This document shows positions 1,012 through 54,100 of a stretch of 64,000 bases of DNA, one piece after another. The DNA comes from Nitrosopumilaceae archaeon. Its GTDB lineage: Archaea; Thermoproteota; Nitrososphaeria; Nitrososphaerales; Nitrosopumilaceae. The first letter of the stretch is position 1. Every line of letters begins with the position of its first letter. The position numbers and the translations under genes were made by a program. The notes below the pieces were generated by a model. That model saw nothing but the letters and a program-made list of their open reading frames with translations. It did no database searches and was not told the DNA's origin. The DNA is taken from the NCBI GenBank assembly GCA_965214835.1, contig CBDCCK010000002.1, positions 896,001 through 960,000 of the forward strand, in the 5' to 3' direction.

Positions 1012-1767
1012 CTACTTCTTGACGGATTCGATGGCTTTTGCTATTTCGGTCAGTTTTTTGGAGCTTCCAGGTTTTTCCAACATCGTACCAATAACCAGCG
1101 CGTCTGCGCCGGATTGGGCTAGGGACTTGGCGGTCTTGGGATTATGGATGCCCCCACCTACGATTATGAAGCCCTTGAAGGTCCTTCTTACGGTTCTGAC
1201 CATCTCTGGTGTGACGCTGGTCTTGGCTCCCGAGCCGGCCTCCAGATAGACGAACCGCATGCCCAAAAACTGGGCAGCCAGTGAATATGCGGCTGCTATT
1301 TTGGGTTTTTCAAATGGAATTCCTCTTGCAGAGCCCACAAACCAGGCAGAGGTTCCCTCACCGATTATTAAATACGCGGTAGGCAGAGGTTCCAGTCCAA
1401 ATTTTAGGACGCTGGGAGCTCCCAAGGCCTGAGCTTGGGTGATAAAGTATGGGTTTTCAGAGTTCATTAACGAGCTAAAGAGAATGGCGTCTGCCTCTGG
1501 AACAATACCGGTTACGTTTCCAGGAAACAGAATGGTTGGGATTTTGATGTTTTTTTTAATGTTTTTTACCACCTTGGACATCTCCAATTGATCAGTGGCA
1601 GAAGAACCTCCAACCAGTATGGCCGAGGCCCCTATTTTTTCAACCTCGGCTGCCAGTTTTGAAGACGAGTCCGGGTCTGAAACTTCAGAGTCAATCAACA
1701 CGAAAAGCAGGGTGTTTTTCCTTTTTAATTCGGATTGCAGGTGGTCTTCTACGGTGTTTCTAGTCAT
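1012..1767 (-). CDS. Geranylgeranylglyceryl phosphate synthase (GGGPS)
   Basis: Motifs LIDSE, ILVGGS, ILFPG, YLEAGSGA and IVGGGI. The stop codon directly abuts the DP2 ATG. Confidence 0.95.
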   Translation of the reverse strand: MTRNTVEDHLQSELKRKNTLLFVLIDSEVSDPDSSSKLAAEVEKIGASAILVGGSSATDQLEMSKVVKNIKKNIKIPTILFPGNVTGIVPEADAILFSSLMNSENPYFITQAQALGAPSVLKFGLEPLPTAYLIIGEGTSAWFVGSARGIPFEKPKIAAAYSLAAQFLGMRFVYLEAGSGAKTSVTPEMVRTVRRTFKGFIIVGGGIHNPKTAKSLAQSGADALVIGTMLEKPGSSKKLTEIAKAIESVKK

Positions 1768-1832
1768 AAATCAGGTTCTAATCTAGCTCTTTAAAGTTTA
1801 ATTGGAACAATAGTATACAGGTTTGTATAGCT

Positions 1833-2195
1833 ATGTCGGGGTTTGGGTCTTCTAAATTTAATAATATCATAAGACAAATTATAGAAAAATCGTTGTTTAC
1901 AGAGCGACAAATTGAAATTATTTTAAATCAGAAGAACCTTAGTGAGTCCAAGTTTTCCATAACAAAGGGGGCGTACTACAGGCAGGTAAGCCAGTCCAGG
2001 AGCAAGTTGGTGGGTCTTTACTATTCAATCATTCTTTTGCGCGGACTAGGCGTGCTCTTGCCTGATGACATTGATGTGATAACAAGGCTTTCGGAACAGG
2101 TTTCCGTGATAAAAGATGGTGATGTTTTCCCTGAAAGAGAGGAGGAAGTCATTGATGTGATAGACAGGGTGGTCAGGCAGGCCTGCAATATGTGA
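1833..2195 (+). CDS. Hypothetical protein with an N-terminal HTH-like segment (Tfx/sigma-region-4-like)
   Basis: 120 aa ORF; FTERQIEII...ITKGAYYRQVSQSR resembles an HTH. The fold is inferred. Confidence 0.65.
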   Translation: MSGFGSSKFNNIIRQIIEKSLFTERQIEIILNQKNLSESKFSITKGAYYRQVSQSRSKLVGLYYSIILLRGLGVLLPDDIDVITRLSEQVSVIKDGDVFPEREEEVIDVIDRVVRQACNM

Positions 2196-2318
2196 TGGTT
2201 GGAGAGTTTGTGAATAAAATTTCGTGTTTGTTGTGATAATGTGGTGGTGTTTTTCTTTACCCATTAGGTAAATAATGTTTGTCCATATATGATAAATCAC
2301 CATGCATGATGTAGGATA

Positions 2319-2909
2319 GTGATGTTGGTAGAAATTCCCGATCCTGAAGTGATATTTGTGGTGGTTGTCGCGTTTTTAGTGGGGTTGGGTGGATTTTATG
2401 CATACTATAAAATACGGCCCTATGTTAATCTGAAGAGGGTGGAAATCGATCCCAGCCAACTGGCGCGCCTAGAGTATTACGAGCGTCAACTAATCGATAT
2501 GAAAATACGCCTAGATGCCCTAGGGTTGGATGATGGTGTTGTAAAAAAACCTCAAAAAGAACCAGGGGTCGAGGTGGGGATCAGGCAAGCTTCACAGGTT
2601 ATAGAAGATGTCCCACAAGTGAAGGTGGAGGTTGAAAAACAATCATCCCAGGCACAAAGGCTGCCCAACATGACCTCAAATGACGCCGTAGATTATGTGT
2701 TGCAACTAATCACAGACAAATCAATGACGTCACGTGATATACAAGTCACACTTGGAAGGAGTAGGGAGCACACTTCCAGGTTAATGAAGAGGTTGTTTGA
2801 GGGGGGTTATGTTGATCGAAATGTTAGTACAAAACCATATACTTACTCAATTACCGATAAAGGTAAGGAAAGAGTTGGTTTGGTTAAAGGTCCCATAACT
2901 GCTACATAA
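2319..2909 (+). CDS. Membrane-anchored winged-helix DNA-binding protein
   Basis: N-terminal TM helix (VIFVVVVAFLVGLGGFYAYY), coiled coil (RLEYYERQLIDMKIRLDAL), linker, then C-terminal wHTH (MTSRDIQVTLGRSREHTSRLMKRLFEGGYVDR...KPYTYSITDKG). Confidence 0.85.
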   Translation: MMLVEIPDPEVIFVVVVAFLVGLGGFYAYYKIRPYVNLKRVEIDPSQLARLEYYERQLIDMKIRLDALGLDDGVVKKPQKEPGVEVGIRQASQVIEDVPQVKVEVEKQSSQAQRLPNMTSNDAVDYVLQLITDKSMTSRDIQVTLGRSREHTSRLMKRLFEGGYVDRNVSTKPYTYSITDKGKERVGLVKGPITAT

Positions 2910-3119
2910 CCCCGGTTTTTTATAATTTTCCAAGTTCCACACAATGGGGTGGGGGGGTGATGTGTCAGCCAAAAACACAGGTTAGAGAACCAAAACTCAC
3001 CAGACCCTGCAGGGTTGCCCCTTTGTTGTGGTTTGGTTTGTTAGTTTTTCTTTATATTTTATTTAAATTTTTAAATTGTAAAGTTTTATTAATTATAATC
3101 ATTATAAATTATAATAAAA

Positions 3120-3281
3120 ATGTCTGCAGGTGGTTTGGAGGTTTTGGTAAAGATTTCATCGGTTGGTACCATATCACTACCAAAACAGTTTCGAAAGTAT
3201 ATGGACATGCAAAAAGGTGATTATGTTAAAGTTGTTATGGAAAGAGACCGTCTAATTATTAGAAGGGTTGTAATTAGTTAG
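3120..3281 (+). CDS. AbrB/MazE/SpoVT-family DNA-binding protein (53 aa)
   Basis: Below the ORF-track cutoff; hand translation MSAGGLEVLVKISSVGTISLPKQFRKYMDMQKGDYVKVVMERDRLIIRRVVIS fits the swapped-hairpin consensus. Confidence 0.85.
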   Translation: MSAGGLEVLVKISSVGTISLPKQFRKYMDMQKGDYVKVVMERDRLIIRRVVIS

Positions 3282-3665
3282 GTGGGGTTTTTGGCCCGTT
3301 TTTGTTATTTGATAGGTCCATTCCCTGCCTGATTTAACCCTGTTTACCCTGCCTTTTTCATTAAATCTTGATAAATATGTGGAAATTACACTGAGTTTGA
3401 TCGGCTCGTTATACTCATCCTCATATTTTTCAAGTAGGTCTGTAGAGGTGAATTTTCCTATTAAATAGAATTTGTTAATAATATTCCAGATTTTACCCCC
3501 AATAGAATCTAGGTTCTGTGGTTGAGATTCCTGTTCAACATCCATTATACCCATCGAATCCAATAATTTGAAAAGGCGTTCTCTGGTTATGTTTCCCTCT
3601 AATTTAAGATGAAGGGGATTACCATCAGAGTCTACCGTACCTATACTAATCTTATTTCTTACCAT
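3252..3665 (-). CDS. Hypothetical protein with C-terminal winged helix
   Basis: FTSTDLLEKYEDEYNEPIKLSVISTYLSRFNEKGRVNRVKSGREWTY is wHTH-like; the gene is divergent from cdc6 across oriC. Confidence 0.75.
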   Translation of the reverse strand: MVRNKISIGTVDSDGNPLHLKLEGNITRERLFKLLDSMGIMDVEQESQPQNLDSIGGKIWNIINKFYLIGKFTSTDLLEKYEDEYNEPIKLSVISTYLSRFNEKGRVNRVKSGREWTYQITKTGQKPHLTNYNPSNN

Positions 3666-4133
3666 ATGTGATCAATAAGGATTAATTATTAACCATTCAA
3701 TAGGTCTATAAAATTTTGTTAATAAACAGGGTTGTTAATATTGACTGCCTAGCCCACGCCTAGGGGGTTTTTTATTATTAACAATTTTTTAAAAAAAACT
3801 ACCAAAAATCCCTTGTTTTCATGCCTGGAGTGGAAATAAAGGGGTCAAAATTTGTATATTAACCATGTTAAGGGGTTGTTTAACACCTAGAGTGGAAATA
3901 AAGGGGTCAAAATAACCATTTTTTGTCAATTTTAACACCAGATTAACCTATCTGTCAAGCCAAAAAACCACCCACACACCTTTATTTCCACTCCTTTTTT
4001 TTTCAAATTTTTTTTAAGAAACTAAATCTAACCAAAAATAATTAATCATATACTGAATTTGAGTTGTTGTTTGATTCTATACAGTTCTAGGAGAGGTATT
4101 GTGGTAACTAATGGAAATAAAGGTGTGTGGGTG
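3666..4133. other. Replication origin oriC with four ORB-like repeats and AT-rich unwinding tracts
   Basis: CT(G/A)GAGTGGAAATAAAGGGGTCAAAA at 3825-3850 and 3887-3912, an inverted copy at 3969-3994, and TGGAAATAAAGGTGTGTGGGTG at 4112-4133. The region has A/T runs and lies directly upstream of cdc6. Confidence 0.9.
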
Positions 4134-5338
4134 TGTCTGGTGACCCGGTTGATAGGTTATTGGATGCTGCAGAAGGTGGCAAGTCCCTTATCAAAAACAG
4201 GGAAATTTTACATTTTGACTATATTCCAAACATAATTTTACATAGGGATGTTGAACAGGAGCGAGTCACACAATCATTACTTCCAATCCTAAAACAATCA
4301 AGGCCATCAAACCTTCTTGTATATGGAAAGCCGGGAACCGGCAAGACCCTTGTCGTAAGAAAGGTGTTGTTAAAAATCCAAGAAAGGGTGGAAAAAAGCA
4401 ACTTTCCAATCAAACTAGCATATGCAAACTCCAAGGTGGAAACCACCCTTTATGGATTGTTGGTTAGTTTGGGCAGGCAGTTGGGCCTGTCAGACAGGGA
4501 TCTACCATCAACAGGCCTGTCAATCAGTGAAGTCTTCAAACGTCTGCTGGCCAACATAAATAAAAACAAAACAAACGCGGTTTTTGTGATAGATGAAATT
4601 GACTATCTTGCTCACTTGGTCACCAAAACGGGAAAGGACATACTTTACCAACTAACCCGCGCAAACGAGAACCTAAAATCAGGCACGCTGACCATAATAG
4701 GCATCTCAAATGATCTCACCTTCAAAGAACGCCTGGATGCAAGGGTTATCAGCAGCCTCGGGGAAGAGGAGATTGTATTTACAAACTATTCGGTAGGCCA
4801 ACTTCGAAAAATCCTGGAAGGAAGGGTAAACGAGGCCTTTGAGAACTCCTCGATCGAAGAACCGGCATTGAATCTATGTGCTGCCATGGCAGGCCGCGAG
4901 CACGGTGACGCCAGACGGGCAATCGATCTACTCAGGGTTGCGGCTGAAACCGCCGAACGCCAACAATCCGACAAAATCACCGAACAACACATCCGTGACG
5001 CCTCCCAAAAAATCGAGGAAGACAAGGAGACGACGGCCCTCAAATCATACCCACTACATGAAAAACTCCTAATCATTGCCGTGATGCGGACTGCAGGATC
5101 ATCCACGGGCGGGATTTACACTGCATACAAGGCATTATGCAAGACAGTAAGGCAAAAGGAGCTAACCCAAAGACGGGTCACACAAATGCTCAGCGAGATA
5201 GAACTGTCCGGAATCATCTCGGGAAGACTAGTTCACCAGGGAATCCACGGCAGAACAAAAAAATTCAAGCTTACCATTCCACCAGAAATGGTAAAAGAGA
5301 CACTCAAAAACGATCTGTCCTTGGAGGACATCATCTAG
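4127..5338 (+). CDS. cdc6: Orc1/Cdc6 replication initiator
   Basis: Walker A YGKPGTGKT, Walker B VIDEID, GDARRAIDLL and a C-terminal wHTH. Confidence 0.97.
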   Translation: MGVSGDPVDRLLDAAEGGKSLIKNREILHFDYIPNIILHRDVEQERVTQSLLPILKQSRPSNLLVYGKPGTGKTLVVRKVLLKIQERVEKSNFPIKLAYANSKVETTLYGLLVSLGRQLGLSDRDLPSTGLSISEVFKRLLANINKNKTNAVFVIDEIDYLAHLVTKTGKDILYQLTRANENLKSGTLTIIGISNDLTFKERLDARVISSLGEEEIVFTNYSVGQLRKILEGRVNEAFENSSIEEPALNLCAAMAGREHGDARRAIDLLRVAAETAERQQSDKITEQHIRDASQKIEEDKETTALKSYPLHEKLLIIAVMRTAGSSTGGIYTAYKALCKTVRQKELTQRRVTQMLSEIELSGIISGRLVHQGIHGRTKKFKLTIPPEMVKETLKNDLSLEDII

Positions 5339-6768
5339 TCTTCAGAAAAGTCCTTCTTGTATACCTTGAAGGTCTTGAGATTTACAATAATGGCTATGCC
5401 TGGCGTAGGCGCCACGCCCACACTGCTTTGAAAGGGTGTTTGTGCCTGCCATGCGCCTGAGTTTACCAACAAGACGCCCTTGTACATATCCAAGCCCACC
5501 ACGTGCACATGTCCCATGTGAAGGACGTCCGGCACATCGTCAATGACCATCATGTCATCGGTCTCTGGGGCAATTGGCGTCTGTGAACCATAGATCGGAC
5601 TCATATGCCGCGCCATGATCAGGCGCCTCATCACGTTTACCGGCTTGTCATAGCTCAGACCGGGAGTCGTCTTGACAATATCGTCGATACTCTGTCCATG
5701 AAACATCAATATTTTGACCCCGTTTAAGGAAACCATTGCAGGATTGCCCAAAAGGTGGTAGTTTTCCCTCTCCCAAATGCTTTGGTTGTATTTCTGGGGC
5801 AATGCCGGTTGTGGGAGGGCGCGCCGGCCGGGATCGTGATTTCCTGTAATCATAAAGACCTTGACGTTCCTTGGAATTTTTGATAGCATTTCGTCCAACT
5901 TGGACAGTTGGGATTCTATTGTGGGGTGGACTAACTCCTTGTCTTGGTTTGGGTATATTCCGACCCCATCCACAACATCTCCCGCTATTAACACAAAGCG
6001 CACCTTCCGTGCTATTGGGTCCGGGGACTGGAGCCAGCCGGTAAAGGACTCAAACTGCCCCTCCATAAAATACCTGCTCCCGACATGCAAGTCCGAAAGG
6101 AGCACCGCATAGGCCTCGGTCTCTGAACGGTTGGAGGCCCTATCCGGAACGTCAGGCAGAATAATATCCCTCGCAATATATCCACCACTCTTGCCGGGGG
6201 CCGCCCTGACCACAACAAACTGGTCCAAGAGCAGGCCCCGCGCCTCCTCTTTGAGATCCTCATCAAACACAATGACCTCCATGGAGGATGAGGGATCCTC
6301 TATGACCAGCCTTACGATGCTACGCTCGGAACTGCGCTCGGTGACCAACCCACAGACGTATATGTCGTCCTTTGACTTTTCATCCACCACACTGGAAATC
6401 GACTTTAACATTCTTGACTCGGGACGGTCCGAAACGATTCGTTTTAACTTTGAGAACCTGCTTGCAAACAAGGAGTTGTACCCACTTACCCCCTCCGCAG
6501 AGGTGATGCTCTTGGTCGGATCAGACAGGATCTCAAAATCACCATCAATGGCACCATCATCCTTTATTCCCAGAAACTCCTCCAAGTCATCCTGGTTGAT
6601 GTGGTAGAGCCTCTGCCTGGCCTTCTCCTTGACCAGATCCTTGATGATCCTTTCTAACTCCCCGGCCTCAATCCTCCCCAGGACTTCAAAGGCATCCGGA
6701 TGTATCTGAAATCCCTTGCTCAGCGCATAGTTTAGCGCAAAAGACACCTCTCTGTTCAATAGAACCAA
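5335..6768 (-). CDS. polB: DNA polymerase D small subunit DP1 (proofreading exonuclease)
   Basis: OB fold plus calcineurin-like motifs SDLHVGS, AGDVVDG, GNHD, FHG and HMGHVH. Confidence 0.96.
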   Translation of the reverse strand: MVLLNREVSFALNYALSKGFQIHPDAFEVLGRIEAGELERIIKDLVKEKARQRLYHINQDDLEEFLGIKDDGAIDGDFEILSDPTKSITSAEGVSGYNSLFASRFSKLKRIVSDRPESRMLKSISSVVDEKSKDDIYVCGLVTERSSERSIVRLVIEDPSSSMEVIVFDEDLKEEARGLLLDQFVVVRAAPGKSGGYIARDIILPDVPDRASNRSETEAYAVLLSDLHVGSRYFMEGQFESFTGWLQSPDPIARKVRFVLIAGDVVDGVGIYPNQDKELVHPTIESQLSKLDEMLSKIPRNVKVFMITGNHDPGRRALPQPALPQKYNQSIWERENYHLLGNPAMVSLNGVKILMFHGQSIDDIVKTTPGLSYDKPVNVMRRLIMARHMSPIYGSQTPIAPETDDMMVIDDVPDVLHMGHVHVVGLDMYKGVLLVNSGAWQAQTPFQSSVGVAPTPGIAIIVNLKTFKVYKKDFSED

Positions 6769-18321: not shown

Positions 18322-18412
18322 CGATAGCGTTAGGGTACCGGTATGCCCTGCCGAGCTCAGACCTCGGTGGCGCCGACACACCATAGGGGTTCGAATCCCC
18401 TCGCTATCGCTA
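18322..18412 (+). tRNA. Atypical type-II tRNA(-like) gene with anticodon CAG
   Basis: Acceptor (C)GATAGCG/CGCTATC(G); D arm AGGGTA-CCGGTA-TGCCCT; anticodon arm CCGAG-CTCAGAC-CTCGG; 17-nt variable region; T arm AGGGG-TTCGAAT-CCCCT. A TATA-like AATATATTA lies at about 18293-18301. Confidence 0.8.
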
Positions 18413-30457: not shown

Positions 30458-31412
30458 GGTAATACGTAATCATTTGGCCGAGCAAAAAACAGATAATACG
30501 ACCAGCATTCGTGCAAGTCGTGCCTAGCACAGATCCAATAAAACTGGCCAACAGCATGTCAAAAAGTAGGGTCTATTTTCGGCACGCCAGATGGAATGGA
30601 AGGAGGACATGTCCCAAATGCGAGTGCAGGGGGGGGTCTATCACACAGGAGATCGATTCCGGTGTAAAAGATGCTGGTATAGGTTCGACGAGTTTACTGG
30701 CACATACTTGGCAAGGATCAGGCTTCCACCCAACACGGTAATCCTTCTGCTGTATCTGTTTTCGGTAGGAGTTCCGGCATACAGGCTACGATTTAGCATA
30801 AACGTCAGTCTTAGGTCCATAGAACATGCGTTCATGGTGTTTCGCGATGCCATATACGAGGCCGCAATCAGAGAGATGAAAATGCTGTCTGGAGACATAG
30901 AATTTGATGAGGCGATGTTCGGGGGACATCGTAAAGGAAAGCGTGGCTGGGGTGCCGAAGGCAAGACGATCGTATTTGGAATATATGCGAGAAGCGGACA
31001 GGTAATGACGTTTCCAGTACCTGACCGAAAACGCACCACTCTCCGGCCGCTGATCGAAAAGCACACCAAGGCAGGTTCGCTATACTATACAGACGAGCAT
31101 GCTGCATATGCGTTTCTCTCCACCAGGGGAATGCACAAGACGGTAACCCACAGCAACGACGAGTTTGTACGTGATGTAAATATCCACAGCAACGACGAGT
31201 TTGTACGTGATGTAAATATCCACATCAATGGAATGGAGGGGTTCTGGAGCTATGCCAAACACTGGATGTACCAGTACCGTGGGATTCGAAAACGGTACTT
31301 TCCCCTTTATTTGAAGGAGGTAGAGTTCAGATTCAACCATCGAGACGAGGATTTGTTTCCGGTATTGGTGGATCTGTTAGTAAATCGCTCGGCCAAATGA
31401 CTACGTATTACC
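30458..31412 (+). mobile_element. IS1595-family element (frameshifted transposase, about 30556-31400)
   Basis: IR GGTAATACGTAATCATTTGGCCGAGC and its reverse, flanked by AATTCAT. Zn ribbon CPKC..CKRC, EFDE, YTDE, HINGMEGFWS and YLKEVEFRFN. Confidence 0.92.
31149..31220 (+). repeat. Perfect 36-bp tandem duplication inside the IS1595 transposase
   Basis: CACAGCAACGACGAGTTTGTACGTGATGTAAATATC twice (HSNDEFVRDVNI x2). Confidence 0.95.
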
Positions 31413-51146: not shown

Positions 51147-54100
51147 TTGCACACTACGGATCCTGTAAAGGCACTTGTCATGATCATGGAGCAGGATGAG
51201 AAGATCTCCGGGCTGGAAAAAGAACTCTCTATTGTCAAGAAGGAGAATGCTGATGTCAAGAAGGAGAATGCTGAGCTTCAGGCAAGGCTTGCCATGTACG
51301 AGAGTCCCAACATGCCCACGCCCACGCCGTCATTAGACCTTATGCGTAAACGAAATTAGCGGCGATGCCCCCGGCGCACGGGCTACAAATGAGGCAAGTC
51401 AGGGCCGGCGCACGCGCGACTGTACCTTACAACGTTGAAAATATTTGATCAAAACCACAACTATTTTCAGACGATTGATTTAGATCCGGGATCCATTCTC
51501 GCATAAGAGTAATGGCAAAGTCCGAGACCGAGCAGATACGACTGCTGAAGAAGAGAATCGAGCAGTACGAGAAGGAGAAGGTACAGGACAGGAAGGAGAA
51601 GGCGCGGGACAAAAAGAAGATCAAGAAGTATGAGAAGAGGATCAAGAGGCACGAGAAGAAGAGCAGGCAGGAGAGGAAGGAGAAGGCGCGGGACAGGACG
51701 GAGAGGATGCAGTACAGGAAGGAGATCAGAGAGTACGAGAAGAAGAGCAGGCAGGACGGCAGGAGGCAGGAGCGGGATCAGGAGAGGATAGGGCAGCTGG
51801 AACAGCAGCTGGACGCCGAGCGCCGGATGTGGCCCGCAACCTGGGATGACGACAGGCGCTCCGCGGACAACGCCGCCCTCATGCACAGGCTCGAGGTGCT
51901 CGATGACATAATCGGTGGCGGGTCCCTGCAGCCCACCACGTCGATGAACCTCCGCCAGTTTGACTACATATATGACCGGTTTACGAAGCTTGCCAAAAAG
52001 CACACAGAAGGCCCCCTGTTCTCAGAAGACGAGGACAACTTGCCCGGAAACCGGTGCAAGCTGTCCTACCGCCACGCCCTGCTGATGTCGCTGATGCGCA
52101 AGTACGGAAACCCGACACAGGAGCAGCTTGCGGCATTCTTTGGCATAGACCAGAGCACCGTATGCAGGTACCTCAGGTATTGCGACATGATATTCACCAA
52201 GATACTGCCCACGCCGGACGCCGTATCGCGAAAGATACGAAACGCCCGCACGATCAAGGAAGTCAAGAAGATCGTCCCGGATCTGACCGTGATTGTAGAC
52301 GGCACGCACATCGACATACAGCGCCCCACAGACAAGGAGCCAAGAAAGGAGGCATACTCTGGCAAGAAGAAGAGCTTTACGCGCAACACCCAGGTGATTG
52401 CCGACAAGAAGGGACTGGCGATGTATGCAAGCAAGTCGGCGCCCGGAAGCACGCACGACCTCACCATGATAAAGAACAACCCACCGGATCTGGGAATCCT
52501 GACTGCCAGGATGCGCAGCAACAGAAAGCACCCCGAGGACGAGAAGGTAAAGATGTTCTCTGATCTGGGATACATGGGAATCGAGGAGGTGTATCCCGGG
52601 GCCACATCCGTGCAGCCCGACAAGAAGCCAAGGAAAGGCAAGCTTACAAAGAAACAGAAAGCGCAGAACAGGAGGATAAGCAGCAAGAGGGTGACAGTAG
52701 AGCACGCCATAGGACGGATAAAGCAGTACAAGCGGATGCGTGATCCGTACGACGGGACCGCCGAGGAGTTCGACAGGGAGTTCCAGGTGACGGCCGGGCT
52801 TGCCAACTTTAGGCTGCTGTGGGACAAGCGGAACAAGAAGCTCATGCATGGGTTCTGATACCACGATACGGAGCGCATTGCGGCGCCACACGATGCCGCA
52901 CTATACTGTAGTTTTTACCAGCTGTAATGGCTCGTAGCTGCACTATATACGGACTCTGCCGCCCTCATACACGTCATGTGATGCCGTCAGCCTTGCATGT
53001 ATGGCCGGCCACCGTCGGAATATTTCGATCCGGTCGATTACGCATAAGGTCTATTATACAATGATGCCAGAAGAAAGTTCAGGGAGAAAAGGGGCGAGGA
53101 TCCCGGCGGCAGTCCCGGCGATGCTGCTCGGGGCAAGAAACGCGGCCCTCCGTGCGGACACCATGGTACATCGCACGGCAACCGGCCATCCATGACATTA
53201 AGGTACGATCTTGGCTCCAAAATATGCCCAAAGTGCAACATCCAGTTACGGATGCTCAAGCCGATCCACAAGCTTGTCAACGACCTGGACGGTTTTATGC
53301 GCATGATTACTGCCAATGCCATCATCCAAAACGCGGTGTGTCCACAGTGCAATACCGTGCATGTCGCAGCTACCCCGTTTCTAAGCGGCACGTCACTTGG
53401 GCCCGTCTCACTCTCTCTAATCATGATGTTCTTTGAGAAGGGAAACACAGACGAGGACATTGCAGAGTACTTTCAGTATATGTTTGGATTCAGGATGGCC
53501 CCAAATACCGTGACTGCCGCCCGGCACGCAGTGGCAGAGGCGATTCAACAAAACATGATACAACGCATACAGTCGTTCATTGCGGGCAGGCCGTGGATAC
53601 AGATGGACGAGACCGGCTTTAAGCGCGGCGACGGACACATGGGATACGTCTGGGTGCTCAACTGTGAGGGGGCGTGCTTTGTGGTCTTTGCAGATTCCCG
53701 GTCCTCTGAGGTACTGCACACGCACTTTGGATGGCTGGATCCCAAGACTCCCATAGTCGTAGACGGGCTGGCCCAGTACAAGCTGTTCTTTGTGATAATC
53801 CAGAGGTGCTGGAGGCACCTTCTGGCATATGCAGAAAAGCTTGCAGTAAAGATGCCCGAAGGCGATAATGAGAAAAGGTATGACTTGCTGCTGGAATTTT
53901 ACAGGAAGATAGATAAAATCAAGACGCTTGCGCCGCTTACATGCATGGAGCTTTCCAGGGAAGTATACAAAATAATCAACCCGTATGAGGACGTTCACGT
54001 GCGTACACACCTGCTAAACACCATGCCCAACATGTTTACGTGTCTGGCGCATCGGGGAATGCCGCTGCACAACAACGATACGGAGCGGTGCATACGCGAC

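Follow-up and report, generated by a model that had tools for sequence, protein, structure and literature searches.

How the replication origin is positioned, segregated and timed is little understood in archaea beyond the Sulfolobus and haloarchaeal models. The question is raised anew by a 64,000-nt stretch of a Nitrosopumilaceae archaeon genome (GenBank assembly GCA_965214835.1, contig CBDCCK010000002.1, positions 896,001 to 960,000; henceforth the window), in which a small, deeply conserved and uncharacterised gene set sits directly at the one origin possessed by a group abundant worldwide, next to a dense cluster of the pentamer GTGAT. An earlier sequence-only reading had proposed that a membrane-anchored winged helix-turn-helix (wHTH) protein encoded there binds the GTGAT sites and so ties the origin region to the membrane. 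What, then, do these genes and sites do? Our answer, drawn from comparative sequence analysis and held with moderate confidence, is that three of the genes (o120, o196 and o137) constitute an ancient, self-contained cassette of DNA-binding proteins that controls its own expression beside the origin. We found no published description of such a cassette, subscription-only papers and supplementary files being outside the search.

In the window, o120 (1833-2195, + strand; 120 aa, helix-turn-helix (HTH)-like), o196 (2319/2322-2909, +; a membrane-anchored wHTH protein by prediction) and o137 (3252-3665, -; predicted wHTH) lead up to the origin, across which o137 diverges from the gene for the Orc1/Cdc6 initiator (henceforth cdc6; 4127-5338, +; Cdc6_lid E 8e-25, Cdc6_C E 3e-18). 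The o137-cdc6 spacer (461 nt, 32% GC) shows the features by which an archaeal oriC is recognised, i.e., it is A/T-rich, adjoins an orc1/cdc6 gene and contains inverted origin recognition box (ORB) repeats. Specifically, four ORB-like repeats (3817-3851, 3879-3913, 3969-3994 in inverted orientation, and 4112-4133) surround an A/T-rich stretch, and 3817-4133 is the predicted oriC core. Across 30 orthologous loci the ORB core GTGGAAA occurred 65 times in 16.9 kb of o137-cdc6 spacers and 25 times in 144 kb elsewhere, i.e., about 22 times more densely in the spacers than in their flanks. In ammonia-oxidising archaea the origin has been located at ORB repeats preceding cdc6 (PMC5797428, PMC4010727), and N. 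maritimus is cited as having a single, mapped origin (PMC4010727, PMC5333045). The repeats, the enrichment of their core and the published origin location thus bear out the setting beside oriC given by the sequence-only reading, and its list of genes between DP2-GGGPS and oriC-cdc6 agrees with the open reading frames (ORFs), Pfam matches and ORB repeats. As the fourth ORB-like repeat overlaps the GTG at 4127 taken as the start of cdc6, that start codon is uncertain and may lie further downstream. The whole cassette and oriC fall in a low-GC island with positive GC skew (1600-4400; 0.32-0.45 GC vs. 0.52 for the window), and the cassette genes are A/T-richer than neighbouring genes.

To see how far this arrangement extends, we searched genomes in four tiers around the window's genome (family, order, class and phylum). 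Genomes that share ancestry cannot count as independent samples, so all counts below are descriptions of conservation, not statistical tests. Among 41 genomes of the order, including the window's own (17 families), o196, cdc6 and o137 were each found in 38 and o120 in 35. We retrieved 35 loci, which came from 34 of the 40 relatives; six genomes (G002, G013, G026, G028, G031, G039) were left out because they gave no hits or had short contigs, although match coordinates in three of them (G013, G028, G039) show the same gene order. Within these 35 loci, adjacency was complete for o120-o196 (34/34), o137-cdc6 (31/31) and GGGPS-o120 (32/32) and nearly so for o196-o137 (30/32), and the full collinear chain o120-o196-o137-oriC-cdc6 was present in 28. 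Other orders of the class (19 loci) kept o196-o137 in 13/13, o137-cdc6 in 18/18 and the full chain in 12/19, while in 19 loci from other classes o137 and cdc6 were adjacent in all 12 that held both. Four loci from other classes (L075, L079, L083, L084) retain the whole DP2-GGGPS-o120-o196-o137-cdc6 order. More broadly, o137 was found in 70 of 81 class genomes, and in a phylum sample of 121 genomes the o137 and o196 profiles matched 81 each. Where both were present in other classes (52 genomes), they lay within 0.5 kb of each other in 35 and within 1-5 kb in 5 (counted by hand), about 13 kb apart in 5 (family f39) and far apart or on different contigs in 7 (mostly family f33). In 8 further loci picked by an o196 match, o120 was directly upstream in every case. 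The linkage to the origin posited by the sequence-only reading therefore reaches, through order, class and phylum, far beyond close relatives, and a gene order common to several classes implies that the cassette predates their split.

Rearranged genomes reveal which parts belong together. The o120-o196 pair lies 59 kb from o137-cdc6 in a 1.7-Mb genome (G022) and 7 kb from it in G011, the GTGAT array moving along with the pair, and in G021 the segment from cdc6 to DP1 (in the window 5335-6768, -) is inverted relative to o120-o196. In all three the pair keeps with GGGPS-DP2, and in G022 and G011 o137 keeps with cdc6-DP1. The insert between o137 and o196 in G011, a complete family genome, measures about 7 kb (locus L044, 2300-9400). 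The distance between the pair and o137 reaches 489-590 kb in family f33, one locus of which (L068) has no cdc6 within 5 kb of o137. Family f26, from another class (L091-L093), has the order o120, o196, about 550 nt, cdc6, with no o137 found; in family f22 the o196 profile gave no match in the two genomes searched (99% and 95% complete). Judged by gene order, then, o120 and o196 form an obligate pair, with o137, oriC and cdc6 making up another tight unit.

The most conspicuous DNA feature of the locus is the GTGAT array (2076-2353), with copies on the + strand at 2076, 2106, 2119, 2157, 2192, 2233, 2319 and 2349 and one on the - strand at 2296. The o120 ORF contains four of them and a fifth straddles the o120 stop codon; the spacer holds two more, and the last two fall at the o196 start and within o196, respectively. 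The dense cluster seen by the sequence-only reading is thus real, and it is under selection (see below), but its placement needed correction, with four copies inside o120 and one across its stop. An imperfect palindrome, ATGAT-AA-ATCAC (2289-2300), surrounds the TATA-like GATAAAT about 27 nt before the o196 ATG. Over the whole window GTGAT is not enriched (139 copies vs. 133 in shuffles). The nine copies in 2076-2353 have a Poisson tail of 3e-8 and place GTGAT tenth of 512 five-mers for clustering, those that cluster more being mostly A/T-rich words of the origin region; in local dinucleotide shuffles of 2040-2360 the mean was 1.85 and the maximum 7, with 0 of 5000 reaching nine. We assessed genome-wide uniqueness in the window's genome for this cluster and for the full o120 palindrome described below: the array is the densest GTGAT cluster in 3.22 Mb, the next best 300-nt stretch holding six copies, and a scan for exact copies gave no second cluster and no preferred spacing of GTGAT pairs.

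Several measurements indicate that the array is maintained. In the window and 27 relatives (locus GC 25-61%), the interval that begins 160 nt before the end of o120 and closes 40 nt into o196 contains 237 GTGAT in 8,982 nt (26.4/kb), compared with 424 in 143,371 nt (2.96/kb) for the rest of the same 28 loci. Positions are fixed: among 23 family loci, copies recur at -119, -89 and -76 from the o120 stop in 18 each, at -38 in 16 and at -3 in 17, a copy sits on the o196 start in 17, and one or two ATCAC flank the TATA-like GATAAAT in 19 (within -60 to -15 of the ATG). Codon choice follows the motif as well, with valine before isoleucine or methionine written as GTG in 67/80 cases at the o120 C-terminus vs. 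23/82 in cdc6, and with a relative synonymous entropy of 0.38 for motif codons vs. 0.65 for other codons (Mann-Whitney p = 0.007, overstated as the sequences are related). Within the 90 nt before o196, GTGAT/ATCAC exceeded expectation at every tier (observed vs. expected: family 72 vs. 8.8, order 37 vs. 4.1, class 24 vs. 3.1, phylum 17 vs. 1.9); de novo 5-mer enrichment in distant loci was weak before the analysis was narrowed to these 90 nt. There was no GTGAT enrichment upstream of o120 or o137 at any tier, nor in the origin spacer. The long array reaching into o120 (9-13 copies, mostly co-oriented, in the window's family) is found mostly in that family and a few sister families, with 2-6 copies at the o196 promoter elsewhere. 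Judging from fixed positions, synonymous bias and promoter enrichment, the GTGAT array is a conserved DNA feature of the o196 promoter and is under selection; an assignment to oriC itself, by contrast, does not hold, given its lack of enrichment in the origin spacer and its movement with o120-o196.

Could the cluster be something other than a DNA site, i.e., a by-product of the o120 peptide or an element acting in RNA? Two copies do encode a repeated I-D-V-I peptide, and the mRNA strand carries 199 of the 244 copies counted in 28 loci. Against this, the synonymous bias towards the motif extends to low-GC genomes, and throughout the phylum the motif is retained in promoters that encode no peptide, where it occurs in either orientation and in palindromic form. 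L031, L034, L035 and L039 have perfect GTGAT-N0-3-ATCAC palindromes, and the forms seen among the loci include GTGAT-N2-ATCAC and ATCAC-GTGAT-ATCAC. Such use of both orientations and of perfect palindromes suggests a protein that binds DNA as a dimer, as opposed to an RNA signal, and we regard a peptide or RNA origin as barely credible. A structured RNA was also sought directly and rejected: 1700-4300 matched no Rfam family at E<=1 save a chance microRNA row, and folding of 2060-2360 gave z = -1.03. The data sets listed as containing 1800-4200 included none of RNA and four of DNA type, all from one study.

Which protein might read such an array? The product of o196 is predicted to be a single-pass membrane-anchored wHTH protein. 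A hydrophobic helix occupies residues 10-28 (the window's own 19-mer has a Kyte-Doolittle (KD) value of 2.39), and a hydrophobic N-terminal 19-mer (KD>=1.6) is present in 49 of 55 orthologues; in L074, one of those without the anchor pattern, the start codon looks mis-set. Charge is higher after this segment than before it in 50/55, acidic on the N-side and basic on the C-side, which by the positive-inside rule predicts an N-out/C-in topology with about 9 residues outside the membrane and the remainder in the cytoplasm. There follow a zipper of three heptads (L/Y/L/M/L/L at a/d positions, about residues 50-70, read by eye), a variable charged linker and the wHTH (about residues 126-181), which scores above the curated Pfam cut-off (HTH_27, 25.1 bits vs. 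22.2). Orthologues match TrmB in 27/29 and HTH_27 in 23/29 cases at E<=0.01, and R-E-H-x-x-R in the recognition helix is invariant in 29 aligned sequences. The membrane segment and wHTH named by the sequence-only reading are thus upheld as predictions, and their combination is what defines transmembrane transcription regulators, a recognised class in archaea according to PMC10269533. In a large protein collection, relatives of o196 carry generic names (‘winged helix DNA-binding protein’, ‘MarR family’ or ‘hypothetical’). Sequence searches against solved structures returned weak generic wHTH rows for o196 and o137 and none for o120, and the wHTH domains of o196 and o137 aligned in hhalign with a probability of 37%. 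Pfam gave no MerR-type HTH for o196, whose wHTH is C-terminal and accompanied by its own membrane helix, and no ParB N-terminal (ParB/Srx) domain at E<=0.1 in any of the four proteins, i.e., these three and the AbrB-type protein described below. The o196 wHTH profile also matched weakly (E 6e-7) at a second place, outside the window and inside a 429-aa open frame (G000:C2:2549166-2549396), and there is a similar match in G007.

Its partner o120 is more elusive. There is no Pfam family for it, no Foldseek match to its model and no hhalign similarity to o196. The model comprises five helices (pLDDT 87.5), of which residues 16-70 resemble HTH domains of the LuxR/sigma-region-4/EnfR type; these structural matches are weak (VIA-align Z 5.5 to LuxR-type EsrB, 4.6 to EnfR 8hno and 4.4 to DosR), and an ESM Atlas lead points to Sigma70_r4 (score 0.80). 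Upstream of the gene, however, the DNA is strongly conserved. An A/T-rich box (1787-1804, +), almost invariant among family loci, is read here as a putative B recognition element (BRE)/TATA box, and between it and the o120 start lies a perfect palindrome, TATACA-N4-TGTATA (1814-1829), a candidate operator that ends 4 nt before the ATG. Across the phylum, 42 of 65 loci have an exact TACA-N4-TGTA close to where o120 begins, compared with a background of 4 in 428 kb, and many of the other 23 carry one-mismatch variants. In the window's genome the shorter form is present 20 times (about 39 expected), and none of the others is the full palindrome, which is single-copy.

The gene o120 is divergent from GGGPS (PcrB family; 1012-1767, -; PF01884 E 3e-51), the left neighbour that is followed by the N-terminus of DP2 (1-1011, -). 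One might suppose that o120 and o196 sense the state of the membrane and control lipid synthesis through GGGPS, their closeness to the origin being a historical accident. The neighbourhood speaks for this, as GGGPS adjoins o120 not only throughout the order but in all class (9/9) and phylum (4/4) loci beyond it that hold both, and displaced pairs keep with GGGPS-DP2 and not with cdc6 (G022, G011, G021); a membrane-embedded helix could also report the state of the bilayer. The sites speak otherwise. The 90 nt upstream of o120, most of the divergent spacer, hold 0-2 GTGAT (expected 9.3, 4.1, 3.1 and 1.9 for family, order, class and phylum), which weakens regulation of GGGPS as an explanation, and the palindrome, 4-19 nt before the o120 start, is on the o120 side of the spacer. 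Moreover, four loci (L055-L058) lack GGGPS and retain the pair, and o196 extends just about 9 residues beyond the membrane. We thus consider control of lipid synthesis very unlikely.

The third protein, o137, has its own set of repeats. Its model consists of a small beta-beta-alpha N-terminal domain (low confidence) followed by a predicted wHTH at residues 55-120, a fold confirmed by Foldseek (probability 1.0, E ~4e-3; matches to ArsR/MarR/Fur/MecI/AspA). Penicillinase_R (the BlaI/MecI/CopY family) matches 19/29 orthologues at E<=0.01 (best 1e-7), with the window's protein under the cut-off (20.2 vs. 22.6). On the o137 side of the origin spacer (3686-3790) lie degenerate GTTAAC-type repeats, with TTGTTAAT at 3716, 3732 and 3777(-); all 4 copies of TTGTTAAT in the window fall within 3472-3784, and GTTAA is its second most clustered 5-mer. 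While the window's own GTT(A/C)AC copies are degenerate, the motif is enriched in the 110 nt upstream of o137 (observed vs. expected: family 39 vs. 2.4, order 18 vs. 1.3, class 25 vs. 1.7, phylum 5 vs. 1.4), with no enrichment upstream of o120 and o196 (at most 3 copies vs. 2.2 expected). A GTGATC word (3668-3672) also occurs 2-3 nt upstream of the o137 start, inside a GATC-rich stretch, and likewise in L014, L016, L018, L024, L025 and L043 (6 of about 30 loci).

The position of these repeats raises the alternative that the cassette regulates initiation, with o137 acting on GTT(A/C)AC at the edge of oriC to modulate Cdc6/ORB loading or cdc6 transcription. Of the three proteins o137 has the tightest tie to oriC-cdc6 (every locus holding both, in order, class and phylum alike) and keeps with cdc6 when o120-o196 move off; its repeats fall within the origin spacer, with tens of bp between them and the ORBs, and a gene for a winged-helix initiator, whiP, is reported to adjoin Sulfolobus oriC3 (PMC4010727, PMC5333045). 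The protein itself showed no visible likeness to Cdt1/WhiP: Pfam yielded just the weak Penicillinase_R match and no Cdt1 family at E<=0.1, and the Foldseek matches listed are ordinary repressors, with no Cdt1 or WhiP among them. The simplest view of the repeats is that of a repressor binding upstream of its own gene, and in 7 of the 19 phylum-level loci o137 has no cdc6 within 5 kb. We therefore judge a role of o137 in initiation to be improbable, and the extension of this idea, in which o120 and o196 would couple the action of o137 to membrane or cell-cycle state, to be similarly so.

Between o196 and o137 lies a further small gene encoding a 53-aa AbrB-type protein (3120-3281, +), a SpoVT/AbrB (MazE_antitoxin) domain that passes both curated cut-offs (PF04014, 28.3 vs. 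24.7; TIGR01439, 31.9 vs. 28.3). The sequence-only reading counted it in the group; the gene is indeed there, but tblastn confined it to the window's family (18 loci counting the window), making it an add-on to the cassette and not part of its wider form. It converges with o137, overlapping it by 30 nt (3252-3281), and a terminator-like hairpin is found at 3280-3301.

Taken as a whole, we favour a cassette of o120, o196 and o137 beside the replication origin, joined in the window's family by the AbrB protein, in which each conserved motif would most likely be an operator through which the cassette represses itself: the palindrome before o120, GTGAT/ATCAC around the o196 TATA-like box and start, and GTT(A/C)AC before o137. 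Sites placed on or just after TATA-like boxes would be suited to negative autoregulation. In the window's family the o196 operator would have grown into an array of 9-13 copies running some 120 bp back into the o120 frame, where it fixes codon choice. The protein o196 would be anchored by its N-out/C-in helix, probably as a dimer formed through the short zipper; since it is predicted to be membrane-anchored, genuine binding and insertion would mean that an occupied array, and with it DNA 1.5 kb from the ORB repeats, is kept at the membrane. As to which protein reads which motif, the assignment rests on co-occurrence. Family f26, in which no o137 was found, keeps the pair together with both the TACA-N4-TGTA palindrome and a GTGAT cluster (ATCAC-GTGAT-ATCAC before o196 in L091 and L092), and family f22 keeps o137 with GTT(A/C)AC-type repeats upstream (L059 and L060, with the same across L059-L063), which suggests that GTT(A/C)AC goes with o137 and the other two motifs with the o120/o196 pair.

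Several points weigh against this account. As o120 and o196 always co-occur, GTGAT and the palindrome are not divisible between them. BlaI/MecI/CopY-type wHTH proteins read TACA/TGTA motifs, a preference that by analogy suggests o137 as reader of the palindrome, although its retention in f26 argues against o137 as the sole reader. The transcription start and a leaderless mRNA are deduced from spacing. Two families, f33 and f39, have no GTGAT between o120 and o196, the stop of the former overlapping the start of the latter, and upstream of o120 there are two copies in f33 and one in f39. Finally, 9-13 sites over 280 bp, five of them upstream in o120, exceed the need of a simple repressor, and a regulator with clear sites only at its own gene has no visible output, which autoregulation alone leaves unexplained.

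It is here that tethering or segregation of the origin enters, as a minority hypothesis. The array would be a centromere-like site and o196 its membrane-anchored binder, tethering the origin region for positioning or segregation; there would be no motor ATPase, and autoregulation would be a side effect as in plasmid partition loci. We hold both parts of this proposal to be doubtful, though not negligible. In its favour, the array is larger than one promoter needs, has no equal elsewhere in the 3.22 Mb and is only 1.5 kb away from the ORBs, and its co-oriented repeats on both sides of a promoter resemble parC iterons (plasmid R1). Conservation of the anchor and of the o120-o196 pairing extends through the phylum, the pair stays beside cdc6 even in f26, where o137 was not found, and once displaced it can remain near the origin, as at 59 kb in the 1.7-Mb genome. 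In addition, we found no other origin-segregation system for this group in the literature, including the available text of PMC7617429.

Other observations speak against it. The origin spacer itself shows no GTGAT enrichment, on rearrangement the array keeps with o120-o196 and leaves the origin, and the long form is mostly limited to the family of the window and a few of its sisters. Hundreds of kilobases separate the pair from o137 in f33, where one locus lacks a nearby cdc6, and no o196 was found in the near-complete f22 genomes; origin-adjacent genes of haloarchaea, moreover, turned out to drive vesicle formation and not replication (oapABC, PMC10927574). The sequence-only reading had named binding restricted to the protein's own promoter as a result that would tell against tethering, and the lack of a second GTGAT cluster is what that case would look like. 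Its tethering idea thus gains from the origin linkage, the predicted anchor and the selected array, and loses from the location of that array at the o196 promoter instead of oriC and from the absent second cluster. A more specific version, a chromosome anchor without a motor, would have o196 fasten the newly replicated origin region to the envelope through the iteron-like array, which we think unlikely; that o120 and o137 would set the level of o196 and provide a link to Cdc6-dependent initiation is a corollary we rate as no less unlikely.

Whichever account is correct, the cassette lends itself to concrete experiments, offering three proteins, three defined motifs (as probes of 10-20 bp), one array and a predicted anchor. 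Even as nothing more than a self-regulating membrane-bound regulator it would be unusual, with a site array written into the codons of a neighbouring gene and a gene order that survived across classes. If the anchor were true, it would be the first origin-tethering system in archaea, common to ammonia oxidisers and many members of the phylum, and would give direct molecular form to the membrane-attached origins of the replicon model.

Elsewhere in the window, we noted its only tRNA (tRNA-Leu(CAG), 88 nt, 18323-18410), a run-rich CCCCC cluster around 28522 (10 in 300 nt), a 36-nt tandem repeat (31148-31228; 2.2 copies, 97% identity) and tandem 21- and 84-nt repeats rich in AAG/GAG (Lys/Glu-type; 51233-51777), which are also the window's AGAAG cluster.

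How does the cassette compare with known systems? Like the transmembrane regulators of the ToxR/TcpP/CadC type and their archaeal counterparts, o196 is a small protein that unites a DNA-binding domain with a predicted membrane helix; the commonest members of the class are reported to be single-pass, and the class to be enriched in Thermoproteota (PMC10269533), and the o196 family may already be counted, without comment, in the supplementary lists of that study. Unlike them, o196 has almost no external part (about 9 residues) and hence no obvious sensor, its anchor is N-terminal and its wHTH C-terminal, its clear sites are only at its own gene, and it is locked in a conserved cassette beside oriC. 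For o120 one comparison is with EnfR of Thermococcus onnurineus (PDB 8hno), described as a dimeric archaeal repressor on a pseudo-palindrome in a promoter (PMC10570040), and by analogy we propose that o120 may read its promoter palindrome in a similar manner. The o120 model aligns with EnfR and LuxR/sigma-region-4 proteins at Z 4.6-5.5 (root-mean-square deviation 2.3-2.5 over 47-56 residues), scores within the chance range for helical proteins; there is no sequence similarity, and the C-terminal helices differ. The predicted wHTH of o137 matches the BlaI/MecI/CopY family in 19/29 orthologues, the window's protein scoring below the cut-off, and its model has an extra N-terminal domain and lacks their C-terminal dimerisation domain. 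The o120 palindrome is similar to the TACA/TGTA sites of those repressors; here the spacer is N4, and f26 retains the palindrome although a search for o137 there found none.

As a conserved gene group kept beside an archaeal origin, the cassette also resembles oapABC/arvABC at the main haloarchaeal origin, which were first assumed to be replicative and whose products, a small GTPase with its partners, drive the formation of vesicles (PMC10927574). The proteins are unrelated to those of the cassette, and the precedent implies that position alone does not give function. Archaeal SegAB pairs origin-proximal repeated sites with a dedicated protein, as reviewed in PMC7617429. Compared with SegAB, and equally with ParB and RacA, the cassette has no ParB N-terminal domain, no MerR-type HTH and no ATPase partner, and its sites form one tight cluster instead of being spread over an origin domain. 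Both ParB-parS and RacA-ram/DivIVA rely on repeated sites near the origin and a dedicated protein, RacA tying the origin region to the membrane via a partner; in the cassette, attachment would be direct, through o196's own helix. There is also a likeness in layout to parMRC of plasmid R1, where short co-oriented repeats on both sides of a promoter serve as operator and centromere beside the gene of a small binder. The GTGAT array similarly flanks the o196 promoter, with 5 co-oriented copies upstream, 2 around the TATA-like box and 2-3 at or after the start, in a tightly self-contained locus. Unlike parMRC, there is no ORF for an actin-like or ParA-like NTPase between GGGPS and cdc6, the candidate binders are wHTH/HTH proteins (o196 with a predicted membrane anchor) and not ribbon-helix-helix proteins, and the locus is chromosomal and phylum-wide.

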